Notes under the pieces: model-generated
Databases searched by the model: none
The model's input: the letters and a program-made list of their open reading frames with translations, nothing else
What the model was told of the DNA's origin: nothing
Translations under genes and position numbers: made by a program
Shown: in pieces, positions 1 through 23,603 of the stretch
Layout of the letters: every line of letters starts with the position of its first letter
Numbering within the stretch: the stretch's first letter is position 1
Source of the DNA: Botryllus schlosseri
Lineage: Eukaryota
Assembly (NCBI GenBank): GCA_051294905.1
Contig: CM119372.1
Coordinates: forward strand, 13,022,001 to 13,082,000
Direction of reading: 5' to 3'
DNA length: 60,000 nt

Positions 1-1484
1 AATAAACATGTGTTAAACAAAATGTTTTAAAACACCGTTTGTTTTAAATGCAACTCTAGCCGGGGGACAAAAGTCGCCGTTTACCCGCCCATTTTCCAAT
101 TGTACTTGTGCTTGCATACGTGTCACTACGTCTCATCATAGTCAGATGAAAAGCTTTTATATACCCTACGTATAATTCGATGATATTTGAGCGAATAACA
201 ATAATAAATATAACTAAACTTTCATTAATTCTACAATTTTCCAAATAGCTCTGAGATCCAAATCAAAATGGTCCTGTGGCCAACCAGTGGGTCAACTCAT
301 GGCCCACTGTTTGAGAACCCCTGGCCTATAGCAAATGGCAAAGACATATTTCTTTCAAAGGACACCGAACAATCACAATTAAGTTATTTGAATACAACAG
401 GACTTCGTAAACTTCGCTTTGCAGAAAAGTCAATAGAACCACTTATAAATATCTAGTAACAAAAAAGCGTCATGAAATTACATTTAAGTTGTCATAATCG
501 AATTTAGGGTGAATTTTAGTTATTGAAAGTTCACCGATCCGCAAGATTTTTTTTTAGTTTTACCGGTCCACGAGGTCAAAAAGGTTGAGAACCACTGGTC
601 TACATCACACTTTCCATTTGGCCAAAGGCAATTTTACGGTGATATTTAACCGTCTTGACGCGCGCGAAAATTGATGCAACAATGCAGGCCGGGAGCAGGT
701 GAGGAGCAGCGCAAACCGCAAGCGTATTGGCCATTGTTGCGTAATCGATCGAGCATTCATACTCTCACCATAGTGTCCTACAATAATGATGTAGACCAGA
801 GGTCTCAAACACGTGGTAAAACGGGTATCAATCGACAGCTGACTCTGCGCTGATTACGAAAATATAAATTTTATCCCGTTCGTGGCCCTGGAACCCCCAC
901 AATCAGCCTCGAATTTTTCATTGTTATGGAGATTGGTATTGGGACGCAACAATGCTGTCTGGCGAAACGATAGAGTAGCTCAAGAGCAAAAGAGCGGCTG
1001 TGCAGCGAGCGTGAGATTATAGAATGTAAACATACCACTGTGATTCTATTAGAATTTTTGGCCGAAATCGGGGATCGGGTGAATCATGGAAATATACTCG
1101 GGTGTCATTACGTTTTGTGCTTTGGAAATTACATCGGCATATTCGTGAACCTCTTGCCAGACTATTTCTTGGTGATGTATTCAACGACAAATGCATGTAA
1201 ACGACGGTTTTCGGGTGTATTTCCGGGTATAATGACGAAAGAACAATTTTAAGAAGACGAATGGATACCTACTACGCAGCCGTTTGACTGAATATTTTGC
1301 AGAGAAATCGCCCGAAATGTGTCGATGATAACGCTCAGCAGACCATGTCTATCGACAATCCTTGGGGTATAAATATATTTCGAAGAGTGCGAGAATGGTT
1401 TGACACCGGCGGCAGCTACAAAGAATCATCATTTTCCCGAATATATGATCACGACGAATAGTAGAACACTTTTTTAAAAGATTT

Positions 1485-4183
1485 AGGCTCCGGACTCTAC
1501 ATATATCTCATTAAAATCGAATTGAAATCGGACATTTTCAAAATTTCGGTAATCCGGACACAATTATGGCCCCAGATCGACCCTTGGGACGTCAACTTGA
1601 ATAATAACTTTGGTATTGATGGAATCAGCGAGACTAGTAGAATCCATTTCAAAAAGAATTAGGCTTCGGACTTTACATATATCTCATTAGAATCGAATTG
1701 AAATCGGACATTTTCAAAATTTTGATAATCCCGACACAATTATGGCCCCAGTTGGACCCTTGGGACGTCGACTTGAATAATAATTTTGGTATTGATGGAA
1801 TCGGCTAGACTAGTAAAATCCATTTCAAAAATAATTAGGCTTCGGACTCTACATATATCTCATTAGAATCGAATTGAAATCGGACATTTTCGAAATTTTG
1901 ATAATCCGGACACAATTATGGCCCCAGATCGACCCTTGGGACGTCGACTTGAATAATAATTTTGGTATTGATGGAATCGGCTAGACTAGTAGAATCCATT
2001 TCAAAAAGAATTAGGCTTCGGACTCTACATATATCTCATTAGAATCAATTTGAAATTGGACATATTCGAAATTTCGATAATCCGGACACAATTATGGCCC
2101 CAGATCGACCCTTGGGACGTAGACTTGAATAATAATTTTGGTATTGATGGAATCGGCTGGACTAGTAGAATCCATTTCAAAAAGAATTAGGCTTCGGACT
2201 TTACATATATCTCATTAGAATCGAATTGAAATCGGACATTTTCGAAATTTTGATAATCCGGACACAATTATGGCCCAAGTTTGACCCTTGGGACGTCGAC
2301 TTGAATAATAATTTTGGTGTTGATGGAATCGGCTAGACTAGTAGAATCCATTTCAAAAACAATTAGGCTTCGGACTCTACATATATCTCATTAGAATCGA
2401 ATTGAAATCGGACATTTTCAAAATTTTGATAATCCGGACACAATTATGGCCCCAGATCGACCCTTGGGACGTCGACTTGAATAATAATTTTGGTATTGAT
2501 GGAATTGGCTAGACTAGTAGAATCCATTTCAAAAAGAATTAGGCTTCGGACTCTACATATATCTCATTAGAATCGAATTGAAATCGGACATTTTCGAAAT
2601 TTTGATAATCCGGACACAATTACGGCCCCAGATCGACCCTTGGGACGTCGACTTGAATAATAATTTTGGTATTGATGGAATCGGCTAGACTAGTAGAATC
2701 CATTTCAAAACGAATTAGGCTTCGAACTCTACATATATCTCATTAGAATCGAATTGAAATTGGACATATTCGAAATTTCGATAATCCGGACACAATTATG
2801 GCCCCAGTTGAACCCTTGGGACGTCGACTTGAATAATAATTTTGGTCTCGATAGAAGCGGCCAGACTAGTAAAATCCATTTCAAAAAGAATTAGGCTTCG
2901 GACTTTACATATATCTCATTAGAATCGAATTGAAATCGGACATTTTCGAAATTTCGATAATCCGGACACAATTATGGCCCCAGTTGAACCCTTGGGACGT
3001 CGACTTGAATAATAATTTTGGTCTCGATAGAAGCGGCCAAACTAGTAGAATTAATTTCAAAAAGAATTAGGCTTCGTACTCTACATATATCTCATTAGAA
3101 TCGAATTGAAATCGGACATTTTCGAAATGTTGATAATCCGGACACAATTATGGCCCCAGTTGGACCCTTGGGACGTCGACTTGAATAATAATTTTGGTCT
3201 CGATAGAAGCGGCCAGACTAGTAGAATCCATTTCAAAACGAATTAGGCTTCGGACTCTACATATATCTCATTAGAATCGAATTGAAATTGGACATTTTCG
3301 AAATTTCGATAATCCGGACACAATTATGGCCCCAGATCGACCCTTGGGACGTCGACTTGAATAATAATTTTGATCTTGATAGAATCGGTCAGACTAGTAG
3401 AATCCATTTCAAAAAGAATTAGGCTTCGGACTTTACATATATCTCATTAGAATCGAATTGAAATCGGACATTTTCGAAATTTCGATAATCCGGACACAAT
3501 TATGGCCCCAGTTGAACCCTTGGGACGTCGACTTGAATAATAATTTTGGTCTCGATAGAAGCGGCCAAACTAGTAGAATCAATTTCAAAAAGAATTAGGC
3601 TTCGGACTCTACATATATCTCATTAGAATCGAATTGAAATCGGACATTTTCGAAATTTTGATAATCCGGACACAATTATGGCCCCAGTTGGACCCTTGGG
3701 ACGTCGACTTGAATAATAATTTTGGTCTCGATAGAAGCGGCCAGACTAGTAGAATCCATTTCAAAACGAATTAGGCTTCGGACTCTACATATATCTCATT
3801 AGAATCGAATTGAAATTGGACATTTTCGAAATTTCGATAATCCGGACACAATTATTGCCCCAGATCGACCCTTGGGACGTCGACTTGAATAATAACTTTG
3901 ATCTTGATAGAATCGGTCAGACTAGTAGAATCCATTTCAAAACGAATTAGGCTTCGGACTCTACATATATTTCATTAGAATCGAATTGAAATTGGACATT
4001 TTCGAAATTTCGATAATCCGGACACAATTATTGCCCCAGATCGACCCTTGGGACGTCGACTTGAATAATAATTTTGATCTTGATAGAATCGGTCAGACTA
4101 GTAGAATCCATTTCAAAACGAATTAGGCTTCGGACTCTACATATATTTCATTAGAATCGAATTGAAATTGGACATTTTTCAAA
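1485..4183 (+). repeat. 176-bp tandem satellite array, ~15.3 units (left arm)
   Basis: Anchor AGGCT(T/C)CGGACT recurs at 1485, 1661, 1837, 2013 ... 4125 (period 176). Confidence 0.97.
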
Positions 4184-4930
4184 TGGGACGTTGGCTAGAA
4201 GGATGATTTTACCACATATTGGTGCTTCTTCTGTTTGAAAGGAACTCGCCCAAAGTTGCAAAAAGTTTCGGAATTCTGAAAAACGCTTCTGCAACTTCGG
4301 GTCTTCAACGTTTGGATTGTTCGGTTATTGATGAAAATGAAGTAATCCTAAAGGACGAAATTTTTTACGAACATTGCGAAGTAAGATAAAAACCAGGGGG
4401 CACAATCCCTTTTTTTTTGTCCGAAGCAAAATCATAATGGACAATTTGAAAACTTCTGAAATTTTTGAGGAAGGATCAAATCATGCCTACGCAAAAAAAA
4501 TGAATATTATTCTTCTGATTTCGCCGTCAAAATGTTGCATGTTACATTTGTCGGATCGGTGCCACATCAGGTCTCTTGCTCAGATATTTGACTATGGGCA
4601 ATTGGGCATGCTGAAATGGAAGATATTCAAAACCATGGGAAAGCGCTGCAAAAGGCCGGAAATTTCATTTCATCAACGGTTATCTACGAGAGAGTTCCGA
4701 TTTTCACGACATTTGAAGTACCGATCCCCGAAATTTTATCGGAGGAACAAAGCAAGGAAATTTTTGAGCACGATAGCATTTGCGTAAGCTCGCTAACCAA
4801 CTCAAATCAGGAGAAGCAACACGTTCGTCACCACGGGCTTTTTGCTATCAAAAATCATGATAGGTTGAAAATGCATTGCTATACAAATCAGATATGGGAA
4901 TCCAATGACGTATTATCGGTGTGTAAGTAG

Positions 4931-6220
4931 CAGAGGTGCTCAAAGTAGTCAAGAAAGCTACTCAAGTAGAAGTAGAAGTAGCGACGAAAAATCTACTCAA
5001 GTACGAGTAGAAGTACTTCTTCCATAAGACATCCAAAACTACTTGAAGTAGAATTGACTGACATTAAAAGTACTCAAGTAAGTAAGTAGTTGTGAAAACG
5101 ATCCTAATTCGTTCACATGGATTGTAAAAAGGTGAAAATTGAGCTATGTGAAAGGTTACGAGCTTGATTCATATTGAGGCATACCAGGAGGTATCCAATT
5201 TTCGATAGCCTAAGCATTCGTCCACATCATTGGAAGAAAATGATAGTATTGATATGGAAATGCGATGCGAATCCTCTGTTTTCTCGAACAGCATGGTATA
5301 GCGCCATCCCCCATCTTAGAAGGCCCGTAGTTTAGTCGAAGAGCAATACGGAGAAGTTGTATAGGATTAGTAAACGTTAATAAAATATATGGTGGACCGT
5401 AAAAATGCCATATTGTGTAGCTTTATTTCCGGAAATTAAAGGCATTACTACACTTGCTTTTATACTCCAACATGTTTATGTTATCCAGACAAAAGAACTG
5501 ATAATAATTATAACTCAAATTATATGATACTGGGAATTGAAAGTGAAACAAAATTACTACTTCTAAAAGCGGAACACGTTTTTCACGCCTTTAGTCCAGA
5601 AAGTTTCAAAGGTGGTACGCTAAAACAGCTCTAAAACTAACAAAAAAGTCAGAGTCCCCTTTTCCAGGTTAGGACGCGCCATGGACATGCTAGATTACGA
5701 TACGACAAGTAAATGCTAGATTGCAAAATAGCGGTTTCAAACGTTATGATGAGCAATATATACTGTGATGAATTATTTCATATGGGCGAAGGGCGACAAT
5801 GTGGTGTGAACGAAGGGATATCTAGATATCTAGTTTGAGATATCCCTGTGTGAACGGAACCACGCCAACCCGCTAGCTAAGTTACGTTCTTCGATACTTT
5901 CGTGAAATCATACTGATGACTCCGTATCCACTGCGCGCAAAGCGCGACGATAATTCTGGGCTTTACTCAACTCTTATGAAAATTAAATGTAGATATTCCG
6001 TGAAAACAGCCCCGAAATTCCTCAGGCTATCTTCCTGATTGGAAGATTGAACTACTTCTACTTGACAAACTGAAAATGGCGAAAAGTAAGTAAGTAGATC
6101 TCAAAATATTACGAAGTAGAAGTAGCAAAAATCAGATCTACTTGAGTAAGTAACAGAAGTAGAGGAAAACTACTTGAGTGCTTCGAAAAAGTAGAAGTAC
6201 TTCGTTACTGACCACCTCTG
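4931..6220. mobile_element. hAT-type non-autonomous element with AAGTAG/CTACTT subterminal motifs
   Basis: TIR CAGAGGTG...CACCTCTG; perfect 8-bp TSD GTAAGTAG (4923-4930, 6221-6228); related pieces at 47022-47252 and ~50255-50405. Confidence 0.9.
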
Positions 6221-6536
6221 GTAAGTAGCCTACGTCAAGTCGAGACTTTGCTTTCTGAGGACGTTTGCGAATAAATCAAATGCAACCGGCAGAATATATC
6301 CACGATCACGGGAATTAACATTCGAGGTAATCAACCCTGGCTTTATTGCAGAAAATTGTGATGTGATGAAATTTTGGAAACCAGATTCCAAAGTCCATTC
6401 ATATTTTTGACTTGTAATTTTGATTGAAATAATAATCAAACAAACCATGGTAGAAATAAACACAACTATGCAAAGACGCTGAAGAACTTGCAAAGACGCT
6501 GAAGAACTCGCTAGGATGTTAATCAACGATGATAAT

Positions 6537-7380
6537 TAGGGCGGTTTTTTTTTTACCTAAAAAAAATAAAATTTTGACCTAAAAAATCAAAATTTTGACT
6601 TAACGTATGCAAATTAGGTGTTTTCCCACATAATGTTAAAATTGTACCACTTATCTTCATTTCTGGTTGGAACTGACTGTCCTAATGAAGTAGTTTGGCC
6701 TGAAAAAACGTTTTTGGCTTAGAAACAGGCAACTTTTTACATGAAAAAAAACAACATTTTAACGAAATCTGGCCCTATGAAAAATTCCAGTGGTTACAAT
6801 ATGTATTATGGTAGAAATAATTAAAATATTTTGTAGTACAACGAGAGATACTTTCCTACATTCTTGGGTAAAAAGTGCACGTCCTTACTAAGAAGCTTGC
6901 CAAGGACGTTCAACAGCAGGAGTTGTTGGCTGACAACACTCAAGTTGTGCGTACACTGCTGTTGCTGGTGACACACCGTGTTGCTTCATTCTGACAATGT
7001 TGTCTACAATCTACATCACAATTTTTCATCATGCGCTTCTTAATGTAAGAATGATGCGATGCACAAGAAGTCTTTCTTCATTTAGGATATTGCGGTACGT
7101 TGACCATAACACCATGTCTACCAATTATTTGTTTTATTTGACCGTTTATGATTCACAATAGGCAGACTATTAGCCGTTTACAACGGTAGGCCTATAAAAT
7201 AGGCTAAAAGCGGTAAAATATCAAATTATAAGTTCACCGACAGTGCAAAATCTATACTTCAAACAAAATGCAGACGTCAAAAATTTTTTGACTTTATGAA
7301 AAATTTTGACAAATTTTGACCTAACGCTACAATTTTGACAAAATTTAGACAAATATTGACATGTCAAAAAAAACGCCGTA
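6537..7380. mobile_element. hAT-type MITE (TAGGG termini)
   Basis: TAGGGCGGTTTTT...AAAAACGCCGTA; perfect TSD ATGATAAT (6529-6536, 7381-7388); shorter relative at 40590-40924. Confidence 0.85.
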
Positions 7381-7639
7381 ATGATAATAGATTAATGAAT
7401 AGAAAAGCCAGAATTTTGAATGTGCCATCTCGTACTTGTTATCATCATTTTGTACATTGTACATTCCTACATTTCGAAAAAATGATAAAATCGAATTTGC
7501 TATAGTCTAGTTTTATTGGTCCGTCCGTATCATTGTTGAAAGCATTTTTACTTCTTTCAGTCTTAGAAGCTGTGCACTTACATATATATATATAAAATAG
7601 GACAGGATAAGAGGACAGATCAGGGCCAAAACTTACACA

Positions 7640-9165
7640 TTCCGAACCCAGGGGTCAAATGGGGGCCCTGCGTGTGTTTCGGGTACCGAAATTTCGAAAA
7701 TGTCCAATTTCAATTCGATTCTAATGAGATATACGTAGAGTCCGAAGTTCGATTCGTTTTGAAATAGATTCTACTAGTCTAGCCGATTCCATCAATACCA
7801 AAATTATTATTCAAGTCGACGTCCCAAGGGTCGATCTGGGGCCATAATTTTGTCCGGATTACCGAAATTTCGAAAATGTCCAATTTCAATTCGATTCTAA
7901 TGAGATATATGTAAAGTCCGAAGCCTAATTCGTTTTGAAATGGATTCTAATAGTCTAGCCGATTCGATCAATACCAAAATTATTATTCAAGTCGACGTCC
8001 CAAGGGTCGAACTGGGGCCATAATTTTGTCCGGATTACTGAAATTTCGAAAATGTCCAATTTCAATTCGATTCTAATGAGATATATGTAAAGTCCGAAGC
8101 CTAATTCGTTTCGAAATGGATTCTACTAGTCTAGCCGATTCGATCAATACCAAAATTATTATTCAAGTCGACGTCCCATTCCCAAGGGTCGAACTGGGCC
8201 CATAATTTTGTCCGGATTACTGAAATTTCGAAAATGTCCAATTTCAATTCGATTCTAATGAGATATATGTAAAGTCCGAAGCCTAATTCGTTTTGAAATG
8301 GATTGTACTAGTCTAGCCGATTCGATCAATACCAAAATTATTATTCAAGTCGACGTCCCAAGGGTCGATCTGGGGCCATAATTTTGTCCGGATTACCGAA
8401 ATTTCGAAAATGTCCAATTTCAATTCGATTCTAATGAGATATATGTAAAGTCCGAAGCCTAATTCGTTTTGAAATGGATTGTACTAGTCTAGCCGATTCG
8501 ATCAATACCAAAATTATTATTCAAGTTGACGTCCCAAGGGTCGAACTGGGGCCATAATTTTGTTCGGATTACCGAAATTTCGAAAATGTCCAATTTCAAT
8601 TCGATTCTAATGAGATATATAGAGTCCGAAGCCTAATTCGTTTTGAAATGGGTGCTACTAGACTGACCGATTCTATCAAGACCAAAATTATTATTCAAGT
8701 CGACGTCCCAAGGGTCGAACTGGGGCCATAATTGTGTCCGGATTACCGAAATTTCGAAAATGTCCAATTTCAATTCGATTCTAATGAGATATATGTAAAG
8801 TGCGAAGCCTAATTCGTTTTGAAATGGATTCTACTAGTCTGACCGATGCTATGAAGACCAAAATTATTATTCAAGTCGACGTCCCAAGGGTCGATCTGGG
8901 GCCATAATTTTGTCCGGATTACCGAAATTTCGAAAATGTCCAATTTCAATTCGATTCTAATGAGATATATGTAGAGTCCGAAGCCTAATTCGTTTTGAAA
9001 TGGATTTTACTAGTCTGGCCGATTCTATCAATACCAAAATTATTATTCAAGTCGACGTCCCAAGGGTCGAACTGGGGCCATAATTTTGTTCGGATTACCG
9101 AAATTTCGAAAATGTCCAATTTCAATTCGATTCTAATGAGATATATGTAGAGTCCGGATCCTAAA
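7640..9165 (-). repeat. 176-bp satellite array, ~8.5 units, inverted (right arm)
   Basis: Reverse complement of the 1485-4183 unit (TCAAGTCGACGTCCCAAGGGTCGA...GGGGCCATAATT repeated every ~176 bp). Confidence 0.96.
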
Positions 9166-9294
9166 TCTTTTAAAAAAGTTTTCTACTATTCGTCGTGATC
9201 ATATATTCGGGAAAATGATGATTCTTTGTAGCTGCCGCCGGTGTCAAGCCATTCCCGCACTCTTCGAAATAATTTATAGCCAAGGATTGTCGAA

Positions 9295-11725
9295 CAGTGG
9301 CGGCTCGTCCTATAGGGCAACTGGGGCATTGCCCCACCTAAAATTCTGTTCGATAACAATTTAACCATTTATAGACGCACAGCAATCAGTATATACCGAG
9401 ATCACGGCGAAACCCGCATTATTCTTGTGCTTTCGCTAACAAATGCCCATACATAGCGAAGTCTCTGCGAAAATCGAATTCTCTTCTGTGTTTTCGCTTT
9501 GTGAATGCCTAGCCGGGGCTTGCCCCGGTAGCGCTCATAACAAGCTTTCACTATCTATTCTCTCAAAGCCGCGCACAATAAAGAAACGGTGATTTGCTCT
9601 CTCCTATTCGTAAAATGGCCGAGCAAGTGGGGCAACTATGCCTGTCGTCCTTAAGGTGTGATGTAACAATCGTATCTATATCTGAACTCGGTTACCGTGA
9701 TATGCGTTGACTCGACCTTTGCTGGTATATGTCGATTTTGACGGTGTTTCGCACCATGATAATTCTTGAAACTTGGTACGATATGTCGTGAAGGTAGTAT
9801 TTAGCACTGCTCCAAGTTTCAGGCTTGCTACTCAAAGATAAGGGTGGTAATTTCGTTTCCGAAGTTCAGTGTGTGCGGATCTATCATGTACATTGTACAG
9901 CAAACAGATTTTACTCAAAAGCCGGTATTGGTCTCCATTGATTTTGACGATGTTCCATACCGAGATCGGTCATGATATTTGGCACAGTAAGTCTTAATAT
10001 TAGTATCGACCGCTGTAATAAGTTTTAAGTTTGTCACTGAACTATGTGGGTGGTAATTTCGTTTCCAAAGTCGAGTGAGAGCTGACTCTTCATTTATCGC
10101 TAACAGATTTACGCAAAAGCCGTTATTGGTCTCTATTGATTTTAACGATGTTCCATACCTAGATCTGTCATGAGCTTTTGCACGGTATGTCTTGATTTTA
10201 GTATCGAACGCGGTGCCAAGTCTTAAAGTTGACGCTCAATGATTGAGGCAGTTATTTCGTTTTCGAGGTCGAGTATGGTAGAGATGCGCGCTGATCTGAT
10301 ACTTAGCCTACCTACATCATTGCGGATCTCACGGAAAAGCCGGTGTCTGTCTGTGCTAATCTAGTCTGCGTTCCATAACTAGATCGGTGATGATATTTCC
10401 AATGGTATATCTCGATGATCGCATGAAACAGCTAACTAAGATTTTCGGTTTGCATTCAAATATTCACATAATTTTATGTTCGCCAATGTGCATTTCACTG
10501 TGAAATTGTGGCCTTCAAACCATTTGCTTACAATCCCCTGTCAAATGCGATAGCTATTTCATTTTCGATGTCGGCTAACAGCTGATCATTCGATCAGCCT
10601 ATTCCTCGATCTATTTTACTCAAAGTTCGGTGTTCGTCTGTTTGTATTGATTTTGACAGTGTACCATGCCGGAATGGGTTATGAGATTGCGAATGCTACT
10701 TCTCGATGATTTCATGTAACAGTATGCTAAGTTTACGGCTTTCATTCATGTATTTATTGATTAATATATTTTCCAACGGCGATTTGGCAGCAGACAGTAA
10801 GCCGTATGTGTTGCGTCACAATCTCCAGTTTCAAGGCCAAAATGTACTATGTTGTTCCGAGACCGAAGTTCCGAGGCTGCTGTCCTTAGTTCTTCAAAGA
10901 CCATTCAAATTGATGTTCTGGATTCAATATGACAGGCCCAATCTATGAGATAACAATTGCGTATGTGTCCGAAGTCGTTGACCTTTGCAGTTAGGCTTAC
11001 GCAATCTCTCGAGTTCTAGTCATTGGAATTAGTCTGGTCAAGTCAAGTGCGAACATGAATCGTATTGAATCTTTGCTCCGTACGTAGGCTAGTTTACGCG
11101 GTTGTATTTAGAGCGAAAATTAAAGGTCTAGAAGACTACTCCTTGTCGCTTCGACATCTTCCTGTCTTTTCATTGTATCGCATTTTTGTGGTGTATTGAA
11201 CTGATAAAATTGCTAATAAACCAATGATGATGGTGATAGAAATTGTCCAGTCCATTGATCCAATCGTACGCCGGGTACCTCCGCTTTGGTTGCCTATCAC
11301 CTGGTCGTAACTCGTAACCACCAGCTCAGTGGTCGTAACACACCAGGATCGTGTACGAAACACTTTCGGACGGCCTTTCGATTTGCGTAATCTCTAACTC
11401 TACCATGAAATCATAACGCATGCTACTAAGGATGACCTGATAATTGATTCGTGGCATAGGGACGATTCTTAGTTCACGTACATTATGTAAAGTAATCCTT
11501 TGATTAAAAAAAAATGAATAAAACATTTGTTACCACACTTCAAGTCACGGCTCACCGGCAAACTTCTCGCGGCACCTACGTTAAAATCACTGTTGTCGGG
11601 AAATTCATGTGACCATCATAATAAAGTTACTTTTTTACGTTGGAAAACGCCATTGTGACGTCATGTTGATAAAAGTCGCTCGCAGCCCTTGCCCCACCAC
11701 CCGATATTGTCACGAGCCGCCACTG
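9295..11725. mobile_element. hAT-type non-autonomous element inserted in the right arm of the foldback element
   Basis: TIR CAGTGGCGGCTCGT...ACGAGCCGCCACTG; perfect TSD TTGTCGAA (9287-9294, 11726-11733); removing it restores colinearity with the left arm. Confidence 0.93.
9720..10750 (+). repeat. Degenerate ~200-bp tandem repeats (about 5) inside the hAT element
   Basis: GATTTTGACGATGTTCCATAC...GATC.GTCATGA-like block recurs near 9735, 9940, 10138, 10360 and 10650. Confidence 0.7.
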
Positions 11726-12973
11726 TTGTCGAAAGACATGGTCTGCTGAGCGTTATCATCGACACATTTCTGGCGATTTCTCTGCAAAATATTCAGTCAA
11801 ACGGCTGCGTAGTAGGTATCTATTCGTCTTCTTAAAATTGTTTTTTCGTCATATTAGCCGGAAATATACCGGAAAACAATCGTTTACATGCATTTGTCGT
11901 TGAATACATCAACAAGAAATAGTATGGCAAGAGTTTCCCGAATATGCCGATGTAATTTCCAAAGCACAAAACGTAATGACACCCGAGTATATTTCCATGA
12001 TTCACCCGATCACCGATTTTCGCCAAAAATTCTAATAGAATCACAGTGGTGTAAACATGGAACGGCAACAACCGATTTTGCAGCTTCGTTCCGCTTCGCT
12101 GAGGCTGCTGTGGAGAATTGTTTTGCGTAGGATTTCTGGCAATCCAAAAGTTATCTTCCAGAGCGCAGAATTTACTGAATCTGGTCTTGATTGAAAGCCA
12201 TTGTCCCTCTGATTCCAAAAATGTGAATTATTATAATTATAGTTTATTATTATTAGTTATTATCATTACTATTATTAGTTTATTATTATTACAATTATAA
12301 TTGAAGGCCAAGTCATAAAATATTACATGCATACATTCACCCACGCCCAGTAGCTTACAGTACCACACTGTGAAAGAAAAAAAACGGACGGACGTCTAGC
12401 TCGAGCACTATGAAATGATAAGGGCAACCACGAATATAGAAATCAATATCGCTGGTATATCTGCCTCCCCATCATCGAGAATTGATGCTCGATTATAAAA
12501 TCTTGTCAATGAAATTCATGTTTTCTTCCGATCACAGTACTTTCGTTGCTGCTATTCTATATGTATTCGGTACAATTTGAGTCTCCTGCAGTTTCCGCAT
12601 TTTCTAGATCATATTTTCCACGATGGCAAGTTGTGCGTGTATGTATAATAGTTAGTGACCGAATGCTTGACTCTCAGATACTTCAAAATTCCAATTTTAA
12701 ACTATTACGGCTGTTCTCTGCTATTTATGAGGCCTAATTCACCTTATATAGAGTGTCCCGCAGTTCCCGCGTTTTCTAGATATTTTCCGCGAGGCTAGGT
12801 TGAGCGTCTATAATGGTCAGAGACCGAATGTTAGATCCTCAAATACTTCAAAAAAAAGCACTAATTCTGCGTGATACTCGAAAATTAGGGTGTCCCGCAG
12901 TTTCTAAGTATTTTTCTGCGAGGCCATAGGTTTGGCGTATATAATGGTTAGTGACCGAATGCTTGACCCTCAG

Positions 12974-13415
12974 TGTAAACGGCTGTCCCAATTCCGTCAT
13001 GCGCGAAAGCATAAATAGGTCTCGCGCAAAACCAGATCCGTGACGGCACAGGCAATCTGCGAGGCACGTGTTCTCAGAGCCCGCACATTCAAGTCGGCGC
13101 GCTCGCGCGGCAGACGTAATATAGACAATTGGCTCCATTTCGCTTCATTTATTATTTCTATTTCTTATTGAACCGCAGTATCATTGAACCTGGTAAATCT
13201 ACAAGTTTCTGACCACTAATTACTACTATTTGGCTGTTCTGTGCTAACAAAGAAAGCTCCTTGGATCTGCGTGTGTGATCAGGATTGCAAGAGTACTCAG
13301 AGCGGTCATTAGTCAGTCGACTAGTGCGTATAACAGGAACTGTAGCCGTAGCGTCGACTCCAATCAAGCACTATACCAGCGTGTCTTGCAACAAGTCGTT
13401 GCAGCGACCGCTACA
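12974..13415 (-). mobile_element. Solo LTR (442 bp)
   Basis: TGTA...TACA termini, 5-bp TSD CTCAG (12969-12973, 13416-13420) duplicating a motif that is single in other satellite units; AATAAA on the minus strand near 13150. Confidence 0.8.
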
Positions 13416-14090
13416 CTCAGATCCTTCATAAGTTCAATTTTGAACTTTATAAGACTGTCCTCTGCCATTTGAGGCATAATTTGCCTTTTACTCTAAAATT
13501 TGTTTCCCAAAGTTTCCGCGTTTGTTTCTAAATATATTCCGCCAGGCTATGTTCAGCCTCAACTAGGGTCATCAGTGACCGAATATTTAACCCTCAGATA
13601 CTTCATAAGTTCGATTTTTAACTATCACCACAATTCGCGACCGTTTGTGAGGTTAAATCTGCGTTGTAGGCCTACTCGAAAATTAGGGTGTCCCGCAGTT
13701 TCCGCGATTTCTAGATAATTTATTCCGTCAGGCTCTGTTCAGCGTCTATTATAGGGCCACTGAGCAATTGTGGAACAGCATCTCGCCGGCTATCCGACAG
13801 TCGTCGAGCATGTCCGCATTCAAGTCGAAATACAAGCAATTTCTTCTAAATCAATACTAGCCAGTCTTCAGCATTACCGGACCACGACCTAACATCGACC
13901 TCGCCCTCTGCCACATGCCAACTCATTTTGTCGCTTGCGTCTTATATTCTCTGCATTACTTTTGTGCAACTTTGCATTTATTCATAGGTTAAATACCGTA
14001 ATAAATGATCAAACTGAAATACAAAAGAACAGTTGCATCGACTAGCCTAATCCCTATTGCTCCAACAACTCACAAGACGTGGGTGCTAAT

Positions 14091-14511
14091 CAGAGATGAG
14101 CATGGATTAGGATTAGGTTTTGAAAAAACAGGATTTGTGAAATTTTGTCGGATTGTGATTGGATTTGGATTAGACATTTTTTTCAGAACGGATTAGGATT
14201 TGGATTGGATTTACCTATTTTCTGGGAGATTGAAATGTCGTGTGGCGAATGGCGACAAACTTTATTCAGATCAGTTATTAATGTAATTATGGTTACTAAG
14301 TTATCTTGAATCAAGTGAATCGTTGGTTGTGAAAGAAAATTTTCGAATCCCTCCATTGCATAAATTAGTATTTCTTCTGAATTTCCAGTTGGAATCGGAT
14401 TAGGATTGGACATGGACTTGAATATGAAAAAGTTTTGGATTAGGATTTGGATTTGAAGGTTAGGATTTGGATTGGATTAGGACATAGAAATTTCAAATCC
14501 GCTCATCCCTG
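14091..14511. mobile_element. hAT-type MITE with GGATT(A/T) subterminal repeats
   Basis: CAGAGATGAGC...GCTCATCCCTG; perfect TSD GTGCTAAT (14083-14090, 14512-14519). Confidence 0.9.
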
Positions 14512-14659
14512 GTGCTAATACATACATGCACTGCACGCACGTCGCACAATCACAACAACAAGAAGACGAGATCGCTCATGCGTTTAGTGAAACTATTAGA
14601 GAGAGAGATAGTAGTAAGAGATAATCACACATACTTCACAGTCAGTGTGCACTGTGCAT

Positions 14660-15119
14660 TAAGGGTTGTTCAAAAAAAACTTTTTTTTCCAAATCTCACT
14701 CGCCTACTGACTAAATCGTCAGGTTGTCTAAGAAAACGATGCACACCAAATTTGAGTCAATTCCGACTTGTAGAAGCGGAAATATTTGAGTTTTTCGTTG
14801 ATAATCCCCGGATCAAGGATAATCCGAGAATTATCAACGAAAAACTCGAATAACTCCGCTTCTACAAGTCGGAATTGACTCAAATTTGTTTTGCATCGTC
14901 TTTGAAGACAGCTCGACAATTTCATGGGGTTGACAGAAAAATTTGAAATTTTTTCTTTTTAATTTTTAATAATAAAGTAAAAATTTCAATTCAAGATTGC
15001 ACGGCCTCTACTGGTTGGAATTGAGTCAAATTTGGTGTGCATCGTTTTCTTAGACTACCTGACGATTTAGTCACTAGGCGAGTGAGATTTATAAAAAAAG
15101 TTTTTTTTGAACAACACTA
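14660..15119. mobile_element. Palindromic MITE (TAGGGTTGTT family), copy 1
   Basis: Long TIRs; TSD CTGTGCAT at 14652-14659 and 15120-15127. Confidence 0.88.
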
Positions 15120-15138
15120 CTGTGCATGTGCTGTGCAT

Positions 15139-15597
15139 TAGGGTTGTTAAAAAAAAACATTTTTTTCCAAATCTCACTCGCCTAGTGACTAAATCGTCAG
15201 GTTGTCCAAGAAAATGATGCACACCAAATTTGACTCAATTCCAACCAGTCAAGGCCGTGCAATCTTGAATTGAAATTTTTAATTTATTAATAAGAATTAA
15301 AAAAAAATTCTCAAATTTTTCTCTCAACCCTATGAAATTCTTGAGCTGTCTTCAAAGACGATGCAAAACAAATTTGAGTCAATTCCGACTTGTAGAAGCG
15401 GAGTTATTCGAGTTTTTCGTTGATAATTCTCGGATTATCCTTGATCCGGGGATTATCAAAGAAAAACTCAAATATTTCCGCTTCTACAAGTCGGAATTGA
15501 CTCAAATTTGGTGTGCATCGTTTTCTTAGACAACCTGACGATTTAGTCAGTAGGCGAGTGAGATTTGGAGAAAAAAAGTTTTTTTTGAACAACCCTA
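15139..15597. mobile_element. Palindromic MITE (TAGGGTTGTT family), copy 2, opposite orientation
   Basis: Near reverse complement of copy 1; TSD CTGTGCAT at 15131-15138 and 15598-15605. Confidence 0.88.
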
Positions 15598-17055
15598 CTG
15601 TGCATGCCTCTTATTTTCTTATTTACTTCGCCTAGGCTAAGGTGGGTGTCTGATCTTAAAGGCTAGCCTACTCCAAGTTGTTTCGACACCTTCCTATCTT
15701 TTCATTGTATCGCAGTCTTGTGATGTTTTGAAACGATGAAAATATTAATAAACCTGATTGATTGATTGTTTAACCCGCATGATACATCATAAATGCGTGA
15801 TACTCGAAAATAGGGTTTTTCCGCGTTTTCTAGATATTTTTCCGCGAGGTAAGGTTGGGCATGTATATAATCGTTAATGAACGAATGTTTGATCAATAGA
15901 TACTCCAATTTTTAACTATTACGACAGCTCTCTGCCATTTATGAGGCCTAATTCGCATTACTCGAAAATTGGTGTCTCTCAGTTTCCGCGTTTTCTAGAT
16001 ATTTTCCGCGAGGCTAGGTTGAGCTTCTATAATGGTCAGGGTCACTGACCGAATGTTTGACCCTCAGATACTTCATAAGTTCAATTTTGAACTTATTGTA
16101 CCACGGACCTCTGGTGTTTATGAGGTATGACTTGCCTTAGGGCCTATACACTAGGCTACTCAGAAATTTGTGTCCCGCAGTTTCCGCGTTTATTTCTAGA
16201 TATATTCCGCCAGGCTCTGTTCAGCGTCTGTTAGGGTCAGTAACCGAATGTTTAACCGTCAGATACTTCATAAGTTTTATTTCTACCTATCACGACAGTT
16301 CGCGGCTGTTTGTGAGGTTAAATCTGCTTCATACTCGAAAATTGGGTGTACCGCAGTTTCCACGTTTTCAAGTTATATTCCGCGAGGCCAGGTTGAGCGT
16401 GTATAATCATTAGTGAACGAATGTCTGACTCTCAAATACTTAATAATTTCAATTTTCAACTATTACGACAGTTCTTTGCCATTTATGAGGCCTAATTCGC
16501 CTTACGCGAAAATTGGTGTCCCGCAGATATATTTTCCGCCACGGCAGGTTTAGCATTTATAAGGGTCAGTGGCGTAATGTTTAAACCCACAGATATACTT
16601 CATAAGTTTAATTTTCAACTATTGCAACAGTTCTCGGTCACTTGTGAGGCCTAATTTTTCTTATAGGCCTACTCCAAAATTAGGGTGTCCCGCAGTTTCC
16701 GCGTTTTCTAGATATTTTACGCGAGGCCAGTTTTACAGTTACTCTCTGCTAAGTCGAGTTGGGCGACTACACTGGACATTGATCGTATTTTACTCTTGTA
16801 TACTTCATAAGATTAATTTCCCGACGATAATTAGCTCTTACCGATACGAGGCTTCGCCCTCTTTCTCATAAACTCGAAGTTGGGGTGTACCGCTGTTTCG
16901 TCGTTTTAGGCTTTAGAGTTCCGTCTATGAGATCTACAAATGTCAATGAACGAGTGTATCGCGTTCCGCTTTTTCCGCTGTTTCCTCGTTTCAATGCCTA
17001 CTATGTGATCTATAAAGGTCAATGACGGACTGTTCCGCGTTTTCCTCTGTTTCAG

Positions 17056-18034: not shown

Positions 18035-18084
18035 GAGTTAGGTATTTTTAGGGTTGTCCTGGTGATGCGATATTTCCTCATGAC

Positions 18085-20319
18085 TTCTAGTCGACGTCCC
18101 AAGGGTCAAACGGGGGCCATACTTGTGTTACAGGCACCGAAATTTCGAAACCAATTTCAATGCAATACTAGTGAGTCGTATGTAGAGTCCGAAGCCTAAT
18201 TATTCTAAAAAATGTGTTCTACTACTCGTCGTGATCATATATTCGGGAATATGATGATTCTTTGTAGTAGCCGCGAGGGTCAAACCATTCATTCCCGCAC
18301 TCTCCGAAATAAACTTCTTCCCAATGATCGTCGATAGACGTGGTATGTTGAGCGTTATCATCGACACATTTCTGACGAGTTCTCTGCGAAATTTTCAGTC
18401 AAACTGTTGTGTAGTAGGTATCAGGTCGTGTTCGTTAAATTGTTATTTCGTCATAATACCTAGATTTACACCCCAAAACAGTCGTGTATATTAGGGTTGT
18501 CCATAATTTGGAAAATCTCAAAAAAGATGCGTATCCATGCCTCATTCTGTAGATTATTGATAAAAAACATCAATGAACCTGCAATAAGCTCACGGGAAAG
18601 TCGTTAACATTTGTCTAAATACGTTTGAAAGTAGCTGCCGTAGAGTGGGCGTGTTAGCGACCATAGAACGCCGAGAAGACTAGTAATAACGAAATCACGT
18701 CTCTTGATTGGTTAATCAGCAATGCTTGAATGGTCACGACCACAGCGGCTTGCTGATTATGTGCTTATACTAGTTCGAGAAGTTCGCTAACGGCAATGAT
18801 TCTGTTAGCGCATTGTACGTTGGTGATTTAATAATAAAATAAGACATCTGGTCATTGAATGTTTTAGTGTTAAAACTATAGGTACCGATAGCTTTAGTGC
18901 AACAATAGCCTATTGCAGGCATGACAGAGGTGAAACAGCGAATGATTGTGAACTTATAGAAGTAAGTATAGATACCAGAAATAGCCTACATATCTGATAT
19001 GCTTGAGATTACACCAAGTGGTCCTATTTTCCGGTGCAGGTAAGGCATATTAGACATCGCCGAACTGGTGCGGCATACCATGTGATATGGATTCTGGACA
19101 CAATCCTGTATGCTCAGAAGATATGTGGGCCGACCAGGTAGCTTACATTGGATTTCTGAAGAAGAGTGTAACTACAACACCGCTTCAATACATCCTTTTT
19201 GTGTCCATGTCTAGTTTGATTCAAGCATTAGTAGTGATGCAGCCTGTAATGATCTAAGATTTATTAAGGACATGCTAAGCAATGTAAGCAACCTGTCTTT
19301 TTGCTGATGGTCCTACCAGCATAGTCTGTGCTTATCTTTAGACCTCTTTTCGCGGCATCATTGAGGACTTTGACAGCACTTGCGGGTATGATTCATTATG
19401 CTGCAATAATCTGACAAGTGCCAAGCATAAATGACAGATTCATCCAGCCCTTACAGCATTCAACACTTCAATTATATACCACGACAACAGCCTAATAAGA
19501 GCAGACAAAGTAGTGTCAATGTCAAGCTTTATATTTGTATTCGATGATGGTACAAAGGTACATCCCCTCTGAAACTAGAAATTCGTTTGCCACTTGCATA
19601 TGCGCCTTTGCAATATTTTTCCGCTTGTTTTTGTGCTTTCCATCAATGAAATCAAGGCATACGGGCTACAATAAAATTGCTAATAAACCAATGATGATGA
19701 TGATGGTTACCTTCACAATAAGCCATCCGGTCATGTATTTAAAGATATTGTGAAGCAGCTGTTCTTTGTTCATCATGTGTTTCGTTACTCAACATGTTCT
19801 GAATTAATCCTAAATCATTATTGGCGGACCAACCTACAATGCGCTTACAGAATCGACGCCGTTAGCCGACTCATTGACCAGCTTATCAACAAGCCGCCAA
19901 TGTCGTGATCATTGAAGCGTACCAGATTAGCTAATCAAACGCCGTGATTTCGTGATTACTAGTCTGATTGCCGTTCTCTGGTCGCTGGCACGCCCACTCT
20001 ACGGCAGCTACTTTCAAACGCATTTAGACAAATGTTAACGACTTTCCCGTGAGCTTATTGCAGGTTCATTGACGTTTTTTAACTATAATCTATAGAATGA
20101 GATATGGATACGCATAAATTTTGAGATTTTCCAAATTATGGACAACCCTAGTGTATATGCATCTAACGTTGAATATATTGTACAGAAATAGTCTGGCAAG
20201 ACGTTCCTGAATATGTCGATGTAATTTACAAAGCATAAAACGCAATGACACCCGTGTATATTTCCATGATTCACCCGATCACTGATTTACGCCAAAAATT
20301 CTAATAGAATCACAGTGGT
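18085..20319 (-). mobile_element. Diverged orphan arm of the same foldback family (outer TIR plus about one satellite unit), interrupted by a hAT element
   Basis: Colinear with 9050-9294 plus 11726-12050; ends GAATCACAGTGGT at 20319, confirming the family terminus. Confidence 0.88.
18492..20150 (+). mobile_element. hATm-like deletion derivative with ~330-bp TIRs and transposase remnant
   Basis: TAGGGTTGTCCATAATTTGG...CCAAATTATGGACAACCCTA; perfect TSD GTGTATAT; broken frames read GAAYHVIWILDTILYAQKI (~19064-19123) and SSDAACNDLRFIKDM (~19230-19275), resembling the PGAxHxARWM..Y..KI and A..A..NDL.F motifs of TAG-terminated hAT transposases. Confidence 0.8.
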
Positions 20320-20619: not shown

Positions 20620-23603
20620 ATGGTAACCAATTCCACAGTGACGTCAAATCCCAATATCGTGCGGGATGGGAATTCAGGCTCACTGACTGGAGTCAATGTT
20701 CTTCTCGTAATAATATATGGTGGTATGGTAAGATTTTAATTCTTGGATCTGGTAATTAAAAGTAAACTATTGCATAGCAATGTTTCTAATATAGGCTTAC
20801 GTAATTGTAGTAAAACCAGATCAGTTTCACCCATTTAAAGAGATAGGTAAAGATTAAGCAGCCTTTGTCTCTAGAATGACACTGATTCGCTATGTTTCAG
20901 GTTGGACTGATGTGCATCCTGTTTATCAAGAGATTGCTTCTCCGGATTGCGCCCAAATATTCAAAAGGTTATACCGATGTCGTAAAACACGCTCCCGAGG
21001 CACTGAAAGAAGATATTCAAAAACGGCTGATGCAGACAATGAATGTTTATCATGAACCGTTACTGCTATCACCGGATGATTATCGGCAACAAAGTCTGTC
21101 TTCATCAGATACCACAACACAGTATGGCTACCTGTATCGCATGAAAGCTGTGGATGCCATGAGGAAGCTTGGTAGGTATAAGTTGTTTTTCAATTCTGAT
21201 ACCATCCTGCTGAGACTGATGGATAGCCAATGCTGCAGGGTGATGGATGGAATTCTGATACCATTCGCTCCATTGGTCGGAACGCTCAACAGTGATGATC
21301 ATTAACTTTGTACTTGTACTTTATTGAAGTATTCAACTGGTGGTGTTTTCAGACTAGGAGACTACTAATGTAAGCTTTTGAATGCCAACTAATGAAGCAG
21401 AAGTAGTGTTTGGATAGATTTGTGTCACTTCATGAGTAAAATTGTCATATCAGCTGACAGCTGGACAATATGGCGCAGTAATGGAATCATACAACTTCAA
21501 ATTTAAGCTATTTGGGACGCTGTTAGTCATTCTGCATTATTCGCAGTGATACATGCTGCAATTTTGAAGTTGCCACCAACAGACTAATGGACCGTTTAGA
21601 CACTCATTCCTAAACTGCTTGAGTAACTTTAATAGCCAAGTTTTTTACTTCGACTTCAAATAATAGTTACCGTAATTTTCCGAATATAGTGCGCCCCCAT
21701 GTATAATACGCACCCTTTAAATGACGTGTATATTCTGGGAAAAAGCCTGTGCCCATGTATAGTACGCACCCTGCATTCGCAGTACATGAGTACATGAATA
21801 GTTGTGGTTTAGTATTCGATGTTGTTCTGTTTTGCGATGTCACTGTCGAACAATCATGACATAATGATCGCTAATCATATTACAATTAACGGCATTGTCT
21901 CTAAACGAGAGTAGATAGTAGCCAAAGCCTTTGAGGTCGGCGACGCGATAGCTCAGGCTAGCGACACACGACATCTTGCGCACGTGGCCTATCACAATTA
22001 CAGATGTGATTGCTCAGGCCAACAGTTATGTCGGGCGCACCAGTCCTGTTGGAGATGCGACTGATTATCCAAGCGATTATATCTTGCGTACATGGCATCT
22101 TGTGTATGAGATTGTTACAGCCTGTCGTTGACGCGATGCATCAACAAGGACGCGATGAATCAACAAGGATTGCCGCGCACGCCGCAATCAATCAGTGACC
22201 TAATTTCGTGCAAACGGCACATCAACTCAGCAAGAGATCGAGTGCTTTGCAGACGACACTCGTTAATTAGAAACACGCTTTTCGTTAATTGGCAACATGA
22301 CTCTCTATTTGGCAGCGCGTTACACTCGATAATACGAATTACGGGGCTCAATGGCTAGAGGTGATCCGCGATTTAAACAAACGTGAAGAAAGGCGTGATT
22401 TCAAGTTCTTGATCGAGGGATTTTTTTTTCAAGGCTTGCTGTACCCATGTATAATACGCACCCCCCTATTTTAGGGCAAAAAATCGGTAAAATTTTGCGC
22501 ATTATACATGGAAAATTACGGTATAGCATGTCCAAAACATCGCCAATTCTACTTGTAGTTCATCAGAAATATTCAGTATACTTGTACTTAGCACTCTTAG
22601 CAGTATTAACAATAGATACCTGAACAACTATGGTGGTCACAGTAGAAGTAGAAGTATAGTGCCTTTCAAAACAGATTAAACTACTTCAATATATGTTCAA
22701 ATCGCTAGATCAAACATACCTTCAAGAATAAAATTTGTGGTCAATAACCCACAACCTTCGAATATCGTCAATTTTATTATTTATCAACTACTGAACTACT
22801 CAACACTTGTAAAAAACAGTTAAAAATATATGTGTACAGCAAAAATATGTAGGCGTACGAATAGTGTCTGACCGATTGAGCATACAAAACTTATTTGCCT
22901 GCACTTGTAAATATCATGAACAATGAACATGTTTTCTTGATTTAATGATCCAGAAACTAGCCTTCAGGTTATGTGAAAGCATTGGCTAAAAAACTTTGAA
23001 TACCAGTGCCGAATTTCAGTACAAGCACATCATAGCTGTATGTTTATAAAGTTCAAGCTCCATTGACGCATCTACAGATATGCTTGATATAATTGAATTG
23101 TGATTTGCAGAAGATATTCTTGAAAAGCAAGAATTAGAGCGCAGTAGTCACAAGGAATGGAGCCACCATCTGCACGATTTGAAATCCCACAGCTCTGGTA
23201 TATTAAAAAATGTACGTACCTCGCAGATCAAATCGCTAATGGATATGTACGAACATGCCAGATATAAACAAGAGGTATATCAACACTGCTTGCACCTATG
23301 TACTTGGTGATTCAATCAAATTGGTTGTTTTACTAGCGATTTGGAAAGGTAGAATACAACAAGATGATCGAAACGCTCTCTGAAATCATGTCTGGGTAAG
23401 CTGCTTTACAAGAGATGTCTTATCTATGTGTCATAATTTATGCTTCATTTTTCAAATTTAGAATTGAGCAAAAATCTAGGAAGAGACGCAGCTCAAAAAA
23501 GCAATCATCAAGAAAGAATACAAGTTCTTCAAATAACTCCGGTGCAGCCAAGCCTGGTCTTGACACTAAACATGGCGATAAGGATCCATTAATTAGGAAT
23601 TGA
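20620..23603 (+). CDS. C1orf43: C1orf43 / NICE-3 family protein, ~247 aa, 5 coding exons
   Basis: Exons 20620-20727, 20901-21171, 23111-23274, 23337-23395, 23462-23603, all GT-AG and phase-compatible; motifs LTGVNVLLVIIYGG, HAPEALKEDI, EPLLLS, YLYRMKAVDA, YEHARY, FGKVEY match the NICE-3 family; start codon tentative. Confidence 0.92.
21670..22521. mobile_element. Tc1/mariner (pogo/Tigger-like) MITE in a C1orf43 intron
   Basis: TA|CCGTAATTTTCC...GGAAAATTACGG|TA; same family at 29925-32812 and 45174-45951. Confidence 0.88.

Follow-up and report, generated by a model that had tools for sequence, protein, structure and literature searches.

A broken foldback DNA transposon of Botryllus schlosseri with satellite-bearing arms, probably a relative of Rehavkus

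The closest described systems to the element reported here, a foldback DNA transposon in a 60,000-nucleotide stretch of Botryllus schlosseri DNA (assembly GCA_051294905.1, contig CM119372.1, positions 13,022,001 to 13,082,000; hereafter the window), are Rehavkus, Tetris, Muta1 and Tm1. Rehavkus elements have 9-bp target-site duplications, terminal inverted repeats of 26-400 bp, a PHD finger and a minisatellite (Dupeyron et al. 2019, PMC6446971), and in Tribolium their inverted termini hold 2-50 satellite units, with arrays of up to 80.5 kb in one case (PMC12581902). Tetris varies in unit number between alleles, and its arrays reach 66 copies and also occur as a satellite (PMC4079207). Mutator-like elements (MULEs) produce 8-10-bp duplications, Muta1 both 8 and 9 (PMC5499845, PMC5225508). 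Muta1 also has many non-autonomous derivatives (PMC5225508, PMC5499845), and its repeats increase binding and excision (PMC5499845). It is also published that Mutator transposases can carry Ulp1 and that another transposase has a C19 peptidase (PMC2836005).

The element of the window lies at 1034-12050 and is a genuine but broken cut-and-paste transposon. Our best explanation, to which we give a probability of roughly 0.84, is that it belongs to the Rehavkus-like (Mutator-related) foldback DNA transposons, as a non-autonomous copy with internal deletions. A first-pass annotation, made from the letters of the window, had proposed a possibly unclassified family. We do not retain that proposal, because the core holds coding remnants of the PHD-DDE-Ulp1-USP family, whose motifs resemble the Rehavkus DDE domain, and because Rehavkus satellite arms are already in print. 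On the other hand, the motifs were matched by eye only and the duplication may be 8 or 9 bp long, so we call the element Rehavkus-like and MULE-related and not a proven member of Rehavkus.

Coding remnants of the core

The core is a decayed transposase gene plus a coding remnant of its C-terminal domain, and not a featureless spacer. The proteins P0001, P0003, P0004 and P0006, introduced below, define the family to which its pieces are compared.

1034-12050, + strand (that of the decayed transposase gene): whole foldback element
4207-4581, + strand: decayed transposase piece, lying after CxxH and before the catalytic E (roughly P0006 residues 235-363)
4635-4924, + strand: C-terminal domain remnant, part 1, 63% identical to P0001 residues 10-96 at 4667-4924
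6231-6531, + strand: C-terminal domain remnant, part 2, 66% identical to P0001 residues 98-183 (6231-6509)
7389-7683, + strand: 3' part of the element's own core, non-coding, without a family protein match

A 112-residue frame at 4592-4927 has one relative among 47 candidates, P0001 (E 5e-25). The search with P0001 against 1.84 billion representatives returned P0001 itself, P0003 (E 3.9e-4) and P0002, a bacterial protein with HYR-like repeats that matched over 26 residues (E 4e-6) and was dropped as unrelated. From 7,996 candidates, P0004 was picked up with a profile that combines P0003 and P0001 (E 5.9e-19), and the cluster of P0004 includes P0006, a protein of 1,353 residues with 11 relatives among 6,809 candidates; a close relative comes from Styela clava (42% over 19% of P0006). 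When the C-terminal profile is built from P0003 and P0006 only, P0001 scores 44.6 bits and the best of 1,000 shuffles 7.5.

In P0006 numbering the family motifs are D71, D145, C191xxH and E411, together with the H/D/C of Ulp1 and the C/H of the ubiquitin-specific protease (USP). Pfam gives UCH and PHD matches, the latter on 6 of 10 relatives, and solved PHD fingers match as well; the PHD part is missing from the window copy. From a low-confidence model (pLDDT 40.6) an Ulp1/SENP fold was recovered in the top 11 rows (Z up to 7.7, root-mean-square deviation 2.9 over 107 residues). By eye, the DDE motifs of the family (DATGSV, HD..SI, D.S.A..N and E.YF..K) agree with two published Rehavkus rows in the supplement of PMC13359780, one of which also has N.YY...FA..L, a pattern that can be read in the remnant of the window itself. 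The open literature, taken without Repbase Reports and subscription journals, gave us nothing that joins a Mutator transposase, Ulp1 and PHD with a ubiquitin-specific protease, and nothing on foldback elements in ascidians or tunicates. The last 170-200 or so residues of P0003 and of P0004/P0006 end these transposases, look helical, have no Pfam family and carry the motifs RH.L.L and Y.R.V..IE ... Y..A...LG; an AlphaFold model of this domain was uninformative (pLDDT 37).

Twelve profiles, each a 200-residue slice of the family proteins, were tried on 1,200 six-frame segments of the window, and the top segment is the start of the core, matched by slice 201-400 (E 0.0019). Positions 4195-4581 score 17.0 bits on the transposase profile, compared with 3.1 for the best of 2,000 shuffles. 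A frameshift-aware alignment of 4207-4581 reaches 32.0 bits (246 control windows: mean 13.8, standard deviation 1.8, maximum 21.0) and would place four frameshifts, near 4387, 4439, 4489 and 4542. A second weak match (frame +1, YY...FVG, E 0.085) overlaps this one, and was set aside; the frameshift-aware alignment reads N.YY...FA.K.L there. The suggestion that 4180-4630 is a USP remnant was also rejected, given that it has no USP-profile match.

In part 1 of the C-terminal domain remnant, P0001 residues 1-11 are in another frame, and part 2 has in-frame stops and a 20-bp tandem duplication. The match to P0001 crosses the site of a nested insertion, N1, uninterrupted (residue 96 to 98). The two independent remnants sit in the gene order of the PHD-DDE-Ulp1-USP family: the left array is cut mid-unit and is followed by the transposase scrap, a gap of about 780 residues, the C-terminal domain, the 3' non-coding part and the right array. 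The catalytic residues of DDE and CxxH are missing from the window copy. Remnants of PHD, the first D, Ulp1 and USP were sought in the core, in the outer arm and beside a solo arm of the same family, and none stood clearly above controls. Pfam on the core open reading frames gave nothing relevant, none of 185 candidate stretches from JGI metagenomes was a relative of P0001, and in the ESM Atlas P0001 had only scores below 0.9 and the C48-protease cluster of P0003 was below threshold.

Termini, target-site duplication and other copies

1034-1062, + strand: left 29-bp perfect terminal repeat
12022-12050, - strand: right 29-bp perfect terminal repeat
1026-1033, no strand (1025-1033 in the 9-mer reading): left target-site duplication GTAAACAT
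12051-12058, no strand (12050-12058 in the 9-mer reading): right target-site duplication GTAAACAT
18085-20319, - strand: solo arm, older and of the same family, with 84-85% identity to each arm of the element

The exact termini given in the first-pass annotation hold. In a search of the whole window ACCACTGTG has a single + strand occurrence, at 1034, where it starts the left end, and CACAGTGGT, the reverse complement of the left tip, is found at 12042-12050 and 20311-20319. The two ends are perfectly identical over 29 bp, with the first mismatch at 1063, and the end bases are ACC...GGT; a small palindrome, ATTCTA-T-TAGAAT, lies within the left terminal repeat at 1043-1055. The expected own core of about 1.3 kb also agrees with what is left after the nested insertions are subtracted (1,355 bp, and 6,428 bp for the element without its three insertions). 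As in foldback elements the long inverted arms hold internal tandem repeats of variable number, and as in MULEs the terminal inverted repeats exceed 100 bp (a 440-bp outer domain plus the arrays). The terminal pattern had no match in metagenome and viral contigs. A single match in a prokaryote genome does not extend past 22 bases, and we regard it as chance.

The target-site duplication's length needs more care. The perfect 8-bp duplication that had been annotated is present, but a perfect 9-mer, TGTAAACAT, can also be read if the right end is one base shorter. Both readings are perfect because a T precedes the left duplication and a T closes the right end; a 10-bp reading needs one mismatch. 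Either length falls in the MULE range of 8-10(11) bp (PMC5499845, PMC6446971). We favor 8 bp because the solo arm likewise terminates in GGT and because the alignment of one diverged contig (18 other letters in 135) begins at exactly 1034, where 181 unrelated letters precede it. Either of these supports might be coincidence, at about 1 in 3 each, and 8 bp is thus the likelier length and not a fixed fact.

An 8-bp duplication could also suggest a Zisupton/KDZ, P/Galileo or hAT element. Zisupton duplications are 8 bp long and those of P elements 7-8 bp; KDZ transposases carry CxC/SWIM domains, and P/Galileo elements are marked by a THAP domain and CA...TG ends. The duplications of hAT elements are mostly 8 bp (PMC5499845). 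We find this origin very improbable, since the family to which the remnant aligns has D/D/CxxH/E motifs that resemble the published Rehavkus rows, and no KDZ, THAP or hAT Pfam family is found on the 14 family proteins (P0004-P0017). KDZ-type Pfam families are absent from these proteins and also from the core open reading frames, and the ends of the element, ACC...GGT, without a THAP match, are not those of P/Galileo.

That the repeat begins at the tip of the element is seen in assembled contigs from four runs of four studies. In the summed contig depth over 800-1470, the step from bin 1007-1029 to bin 1030-1052 is 58-, 21-, 12- and 12-fold upward in the four runs. Contig depth is not copy number, run X1 is possibly the source of the window itself and two of the four runs bear other organism labels, and we use the depth only to locate the start of the repeat. 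The outer domain occurs as at least two sequence types at similar depth (in run X6, one differs at 2 of 230 letters and another at 20 of 246). The left flank at 800-1017 is itself an extremely abundant repeat, whose depth is about 50-100 times that of the foldback arm in each of the four runs.

The solo arm lies about 8 kb from the element in a different flank, and contains about one decayed unit, the outer domain and an intact tip; no partner arm was found for it in the window. It is divided by an insertion, N4 (18492-20150, duplication GTGTATAT), which has inverted arms of about 330 bp (83%) and a 1-kb interior with small exon-like stretches that have GT-AG ends by eye. This interior is possibly a captured gene piece; its six-frame translation has no long frame. 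An unpaired TAGGGTTGTCC end, as in N4, is located at 18049-18059, just left of the break in the solo arm, and an adjacent deletion by the family of N4 may have cut the arm.

These observations bear on whether there is a transposon at all. Only a single complete copy was seen, as would be expected if a satellite-bearing segment had been duplicated in inverted orientation next to a chance flanking match. However, the inverted match ends exactly at the perfect 8-mer duplication (two given places would match over 8 bases by chance with a probability of about 2e-5), the depth rises at the tip in all four runs, a second arm with the same tip lies 8 kb off in another flank and the core is a transposase remnant, all of which makes this alternative hardly credible. 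With the second arm, the depth step and the turnover of the units, the element is as annotated a multi-copy foldback DNA transposon with array-bearing arms.

Arms, arrays and nested insertions

1034-1475, + strand: left outer (non-tandem) arm domain, multi-copy
1476-4178, + strand: left array, 15.4 x 176 bp, 95% matches (TRF)
2915-3942, + strand: three-unit (528-bp) block duplication, 2915-3414 against 3443-3942, 99% identical
7684-9175, - strand: right array, inverted, 8.5 x 176 bp, 94% matches (TRF)
9176-9294, - strand: right outer domain, inner part
11734-12050, - strand: right outer domain, outer part
4931-6220, no strand: N1, 1,290 bp, ends CAGAGGTG, perfect 8-bp duplication GTAAGTAG
6537-7380, no strand: N2, 844 bp, ends TAGGGCG / TACGGCG, perfect 8-bp duplication ATGATAAT
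9295-11725, no strand: N3, 2,431 bp, ends CAGTGGCGGCTCGT, perfect 8-bp duplication TTGTCGAA

The arms have the described structure of an outer domain followed by 15.4 or 8.5 units, except that the right outer domain is not a continuous 450 bp but is split at 9294, where N3 interrupts it. The inner end of the left array is truncated mid-unit and abuts the transposase remnant. The outer domains have 22 mismatches per 440 aligned bases (5.0% apart, so that the arms are 95% alike). Among the 23 whole units, divergence is 6.3% inside the left arm, 5.1% inside the right arm and 7.7% across arms, with 7 differences in 176 between the nearest units of different arms. At one site of the unit all 9 right units have G, as does 1 of the 16 left units. 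On the unit tree, in which only 2 of 20 inner branches have strong support, the arm label takes 2 changes compared with 6.9 for shuffled labels (none of 500 as low).

Within the left array, units L09-L11 are repeated as L12-L14 with 2, 1 and 4 differences, and at lag 528 identity reaches 99% in the best 500-bp window, compared with 96-97% at other lags. This three-unit block duplication is recent, and the arrays turn over. The left array was altered after the arms last matched, because the block copies are 99% identical and the arms are 5.0% apart. The duplication may nevertheless be as old as the insertion, and it gives no date for growth after insertion. Arm divergence was rejected as a clock, as the left and right outer domains resemble different sequence types: the left one is about 1% from abundant contigs (1 in 164, 2 in 230 and 1 in 191), and the right one has letters of the other type at 1241, 1263 and 1392 and a gap at 1364. 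The arms were probably already unequal when inserted, to judge from these letters.

We also looked at the unit itself. It had been called nucleosome-length, and its length of 176 bp stands, but the 10-bp periodicity of AA/TT/TA is absent (1,326 of 2,000 shuffles as high). Derivation of the unit from the outer domain is not indicated (264 of 500 shuffles equal the best local match), its inner palindrome is matched by 31 of 500 shuffles, and its folding is no stronger than that of shuffles (z 0.46). The terminal palindrome contains TAGAAT, which the unit consensus has three times, and 7-mers from the tip turn up 6 times in the unit (shuffle mean 1.3; 36 of 2,000 shuffles as high); we take this enrichment as a lead only to the arrays as possible binding sites. 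If single-stranded, the arms could pair over about 1.9 kb, with N3 interrupting.

N1, N2 and N3 are presumably hAT-like, given their short, inverted CAG/TAG ends and 8-bp duplications. N1 lies inside the C-terminal domain remnant and has related pieces at 47019-47252 and 50248-50405, and N2 has a relative at 40630-40856. The interior of N3 at 9734-10754 is a decayed array of units of about 198-206 bp, unrelated to the 176-bp unit.

Elsewhere in the window, 12560-16900 holds a different decayed tandem array (units of about 165-200 bp, at least 9-11 matches on the + strand, several insertions) without a BLASTN match to the 176-bp unit; it may belong to another element with repeats, as its arm or its core. 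Nested palindromic copies that resemble miniature inverted-repeat transposable elements, with TAGGGTTGTT ends and arms of 302 bp at 94%, are at 14657-15600, and a similar element is near 38090-38707. Two related elements at 48325-49370 and 53060-53750, with inverted tandem units of 21, 24 and 45 bp, form a small foldback-like family. A short dispersed repeat ending in (GAT)n, which we take to be perhaps a retroelement 3' end, is found at five sites (11160-11240, 15665-15754, 19671-19704, 36465-36522 and 38856-38953). As for genes, an exon of the NICE-3 family (Pfam PF07406, E 3.5e-16) is at 20886-21305 on the + strand, about 9 kb right of the element. On the - strand, exons at 27000-35250 presumably belong to a 7SK methylphosphate capping enzyme (MEPCE/Bin3), judged by motifs; the two that were tried had no Pfam match. 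A 205-residue open frame at 54988-55605 (+ strand) runs over seven 60-bp units and has no notable Pfam match.

Competing readings, mechanism and comparison with known systems

Several observations count against the Rehavkus-like placement. The two-sequence C-terminal profile gives the piece in the window 12.5 bits in HMMER, compared with 8.8 for the best shuffle, and in its frameshift-aware form 15.5 bits, which is not above the controls (14.4 +/- 1.9). The C-terminal link is transitive, through P0001, because this direct match is weak. Identity to the full-length family proteins is about 25%, the Pfam MULE match of the family (E 0.041) is below cut-off, the spacing from the second D to CxxH is 46 residues, where PMC5499845 gives 15-45, and the DDE fold was not recovered from the low-confidence model. 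P0003 has no USP between Ulp1 and the C-terminal domain, and the parent may likewise have lacked one. The tip and the unit share a motif that is weak and was chosen post hoc. No intact copy with these termini was seen, and the link between arms and transposase comes from one core. Finally, the symmetric reading of the ends gives an 8-bp duplication and A...T ends, whereas 9 bp is the value in all five Rehavkus families for which a duplication is listed (the sixth has none listed).

The last two points would also fit with arms of another, unclassified foldback family with 8-bp duplications, in which the Rehavkus-like scraps are Pack-type cargo or the remains of an inserted element. Arms and gene are not joined in any intact copy seen, and unrelated inner sequence is frequent in non-autonomous MULE derivatives (PMC5225508). 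We consider this unlikely, because the gene scrap adjoins the left array and no further terminal repeat or duplication was seen around it, satellite-filled inverted ends are the published Rehavkus layout (PMC12581902), and one MULE enzyme is able to make both 8- and 9-bp duplications (PMC5225508).

If the element is a deleted Rehavkus-like transposon, its history may have been as follows. The parent would have encoded a single long protein with a PHD finger, a DDE transposase, an Ulp1-type protease, probably a USP protease and the C-terminal domain. Internal deletions arise during the repair of excision gaps, and one such deletion could have run from the interior of the left array into the gene, removing PHD, both aspartates and CxxH. 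A second, of about 780 residues, may have taken out the catalytic E together with the proteases and joined the transposase scrap to the C-terminal domain. The copy would then have moved by cut and paste with transposase from an intact relative, a staggered cut leaving the 8- or 9-bp duplication; here the duplication itself and the behavior of Muta1 are our guides. By analogy with Muta1 and Galileo, the 176-bp units are most likely extra transposase-binding sites, and they would multiply and homogenize per arm through unequal exchange or slippage. The three hAT-like elements would have inserted into it, one of them through the C-terminal domain gene.

A more speculative idea starts from P0001, which is an unbroken 200-residue frame that begins at the same basic patch. 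In some non-autonomous foldbacks the C-terminal domain of about 170 residues might be made as a protein of its own that binds the 176-bp arrays or protects them from silencing. We think this quite improbable; if true, the family would be a satellite carrier with its own array-binding factor.

Current views are not overturned by this element. It is a worked example of a known satellite route, with units in transposon arms, homogenized per arm, and a three-unit higher-order block just forming. It also illustrates how decayed gene scraps allow the classification of a foldback that seems to lack genes and has unusual ends. For specialists, what is new is one more family of Rehavkus-like elements, a duplication that may be 8 bp long in a group with 9 bp and a shared C-terminal domain without a name.

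Compared with Rehavkus as described in the available sources, the element shares the outer repeat with variable tandem units in inverted termini, arrays of unequal length, a size of 5-18 kb and a transposase PHD finger, seen here in the family relatives. It differs in a duplication that is likelier 8 than 9 bp and in relatives that add Ulp1, USP and the unnamed C-terminal domain, and the window copy has no catalytic residue left. Like Tetris of Drosophila virilis (Dias et al. 2014, PMC4079207) it has an outer flanking domain and tandem units in both arms (about 220 bp in Tetris) and no intact open reading frame, and the Tetris duplications are 8-9 bp in three complete copies; no transposase was found for Tetris, whereas a transposase remnant is present here. 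Muta1 of Aedes aegypti (PMC5225508, PMC5499845) is likewise a foldback MULE whose duplications are 8 or 9 bp, whose terminal motif is a palindrome and which has subterminal repeats, but its repeats are 12 bp in a 145-bp arm, compared with units of 176 bp in arms of 2-3 kb here. Tm1 of root-knot nematodes (PMC3169594) is a Mutator/foldback element with arms about 93% alike and 8-10-bp duplications, and its asymmetric outermost motifs are a precedent for the 9-bp reading; unlike the element of the window, it has 14-bp units, a length of about 1 kb and a Phantom-type transposase.

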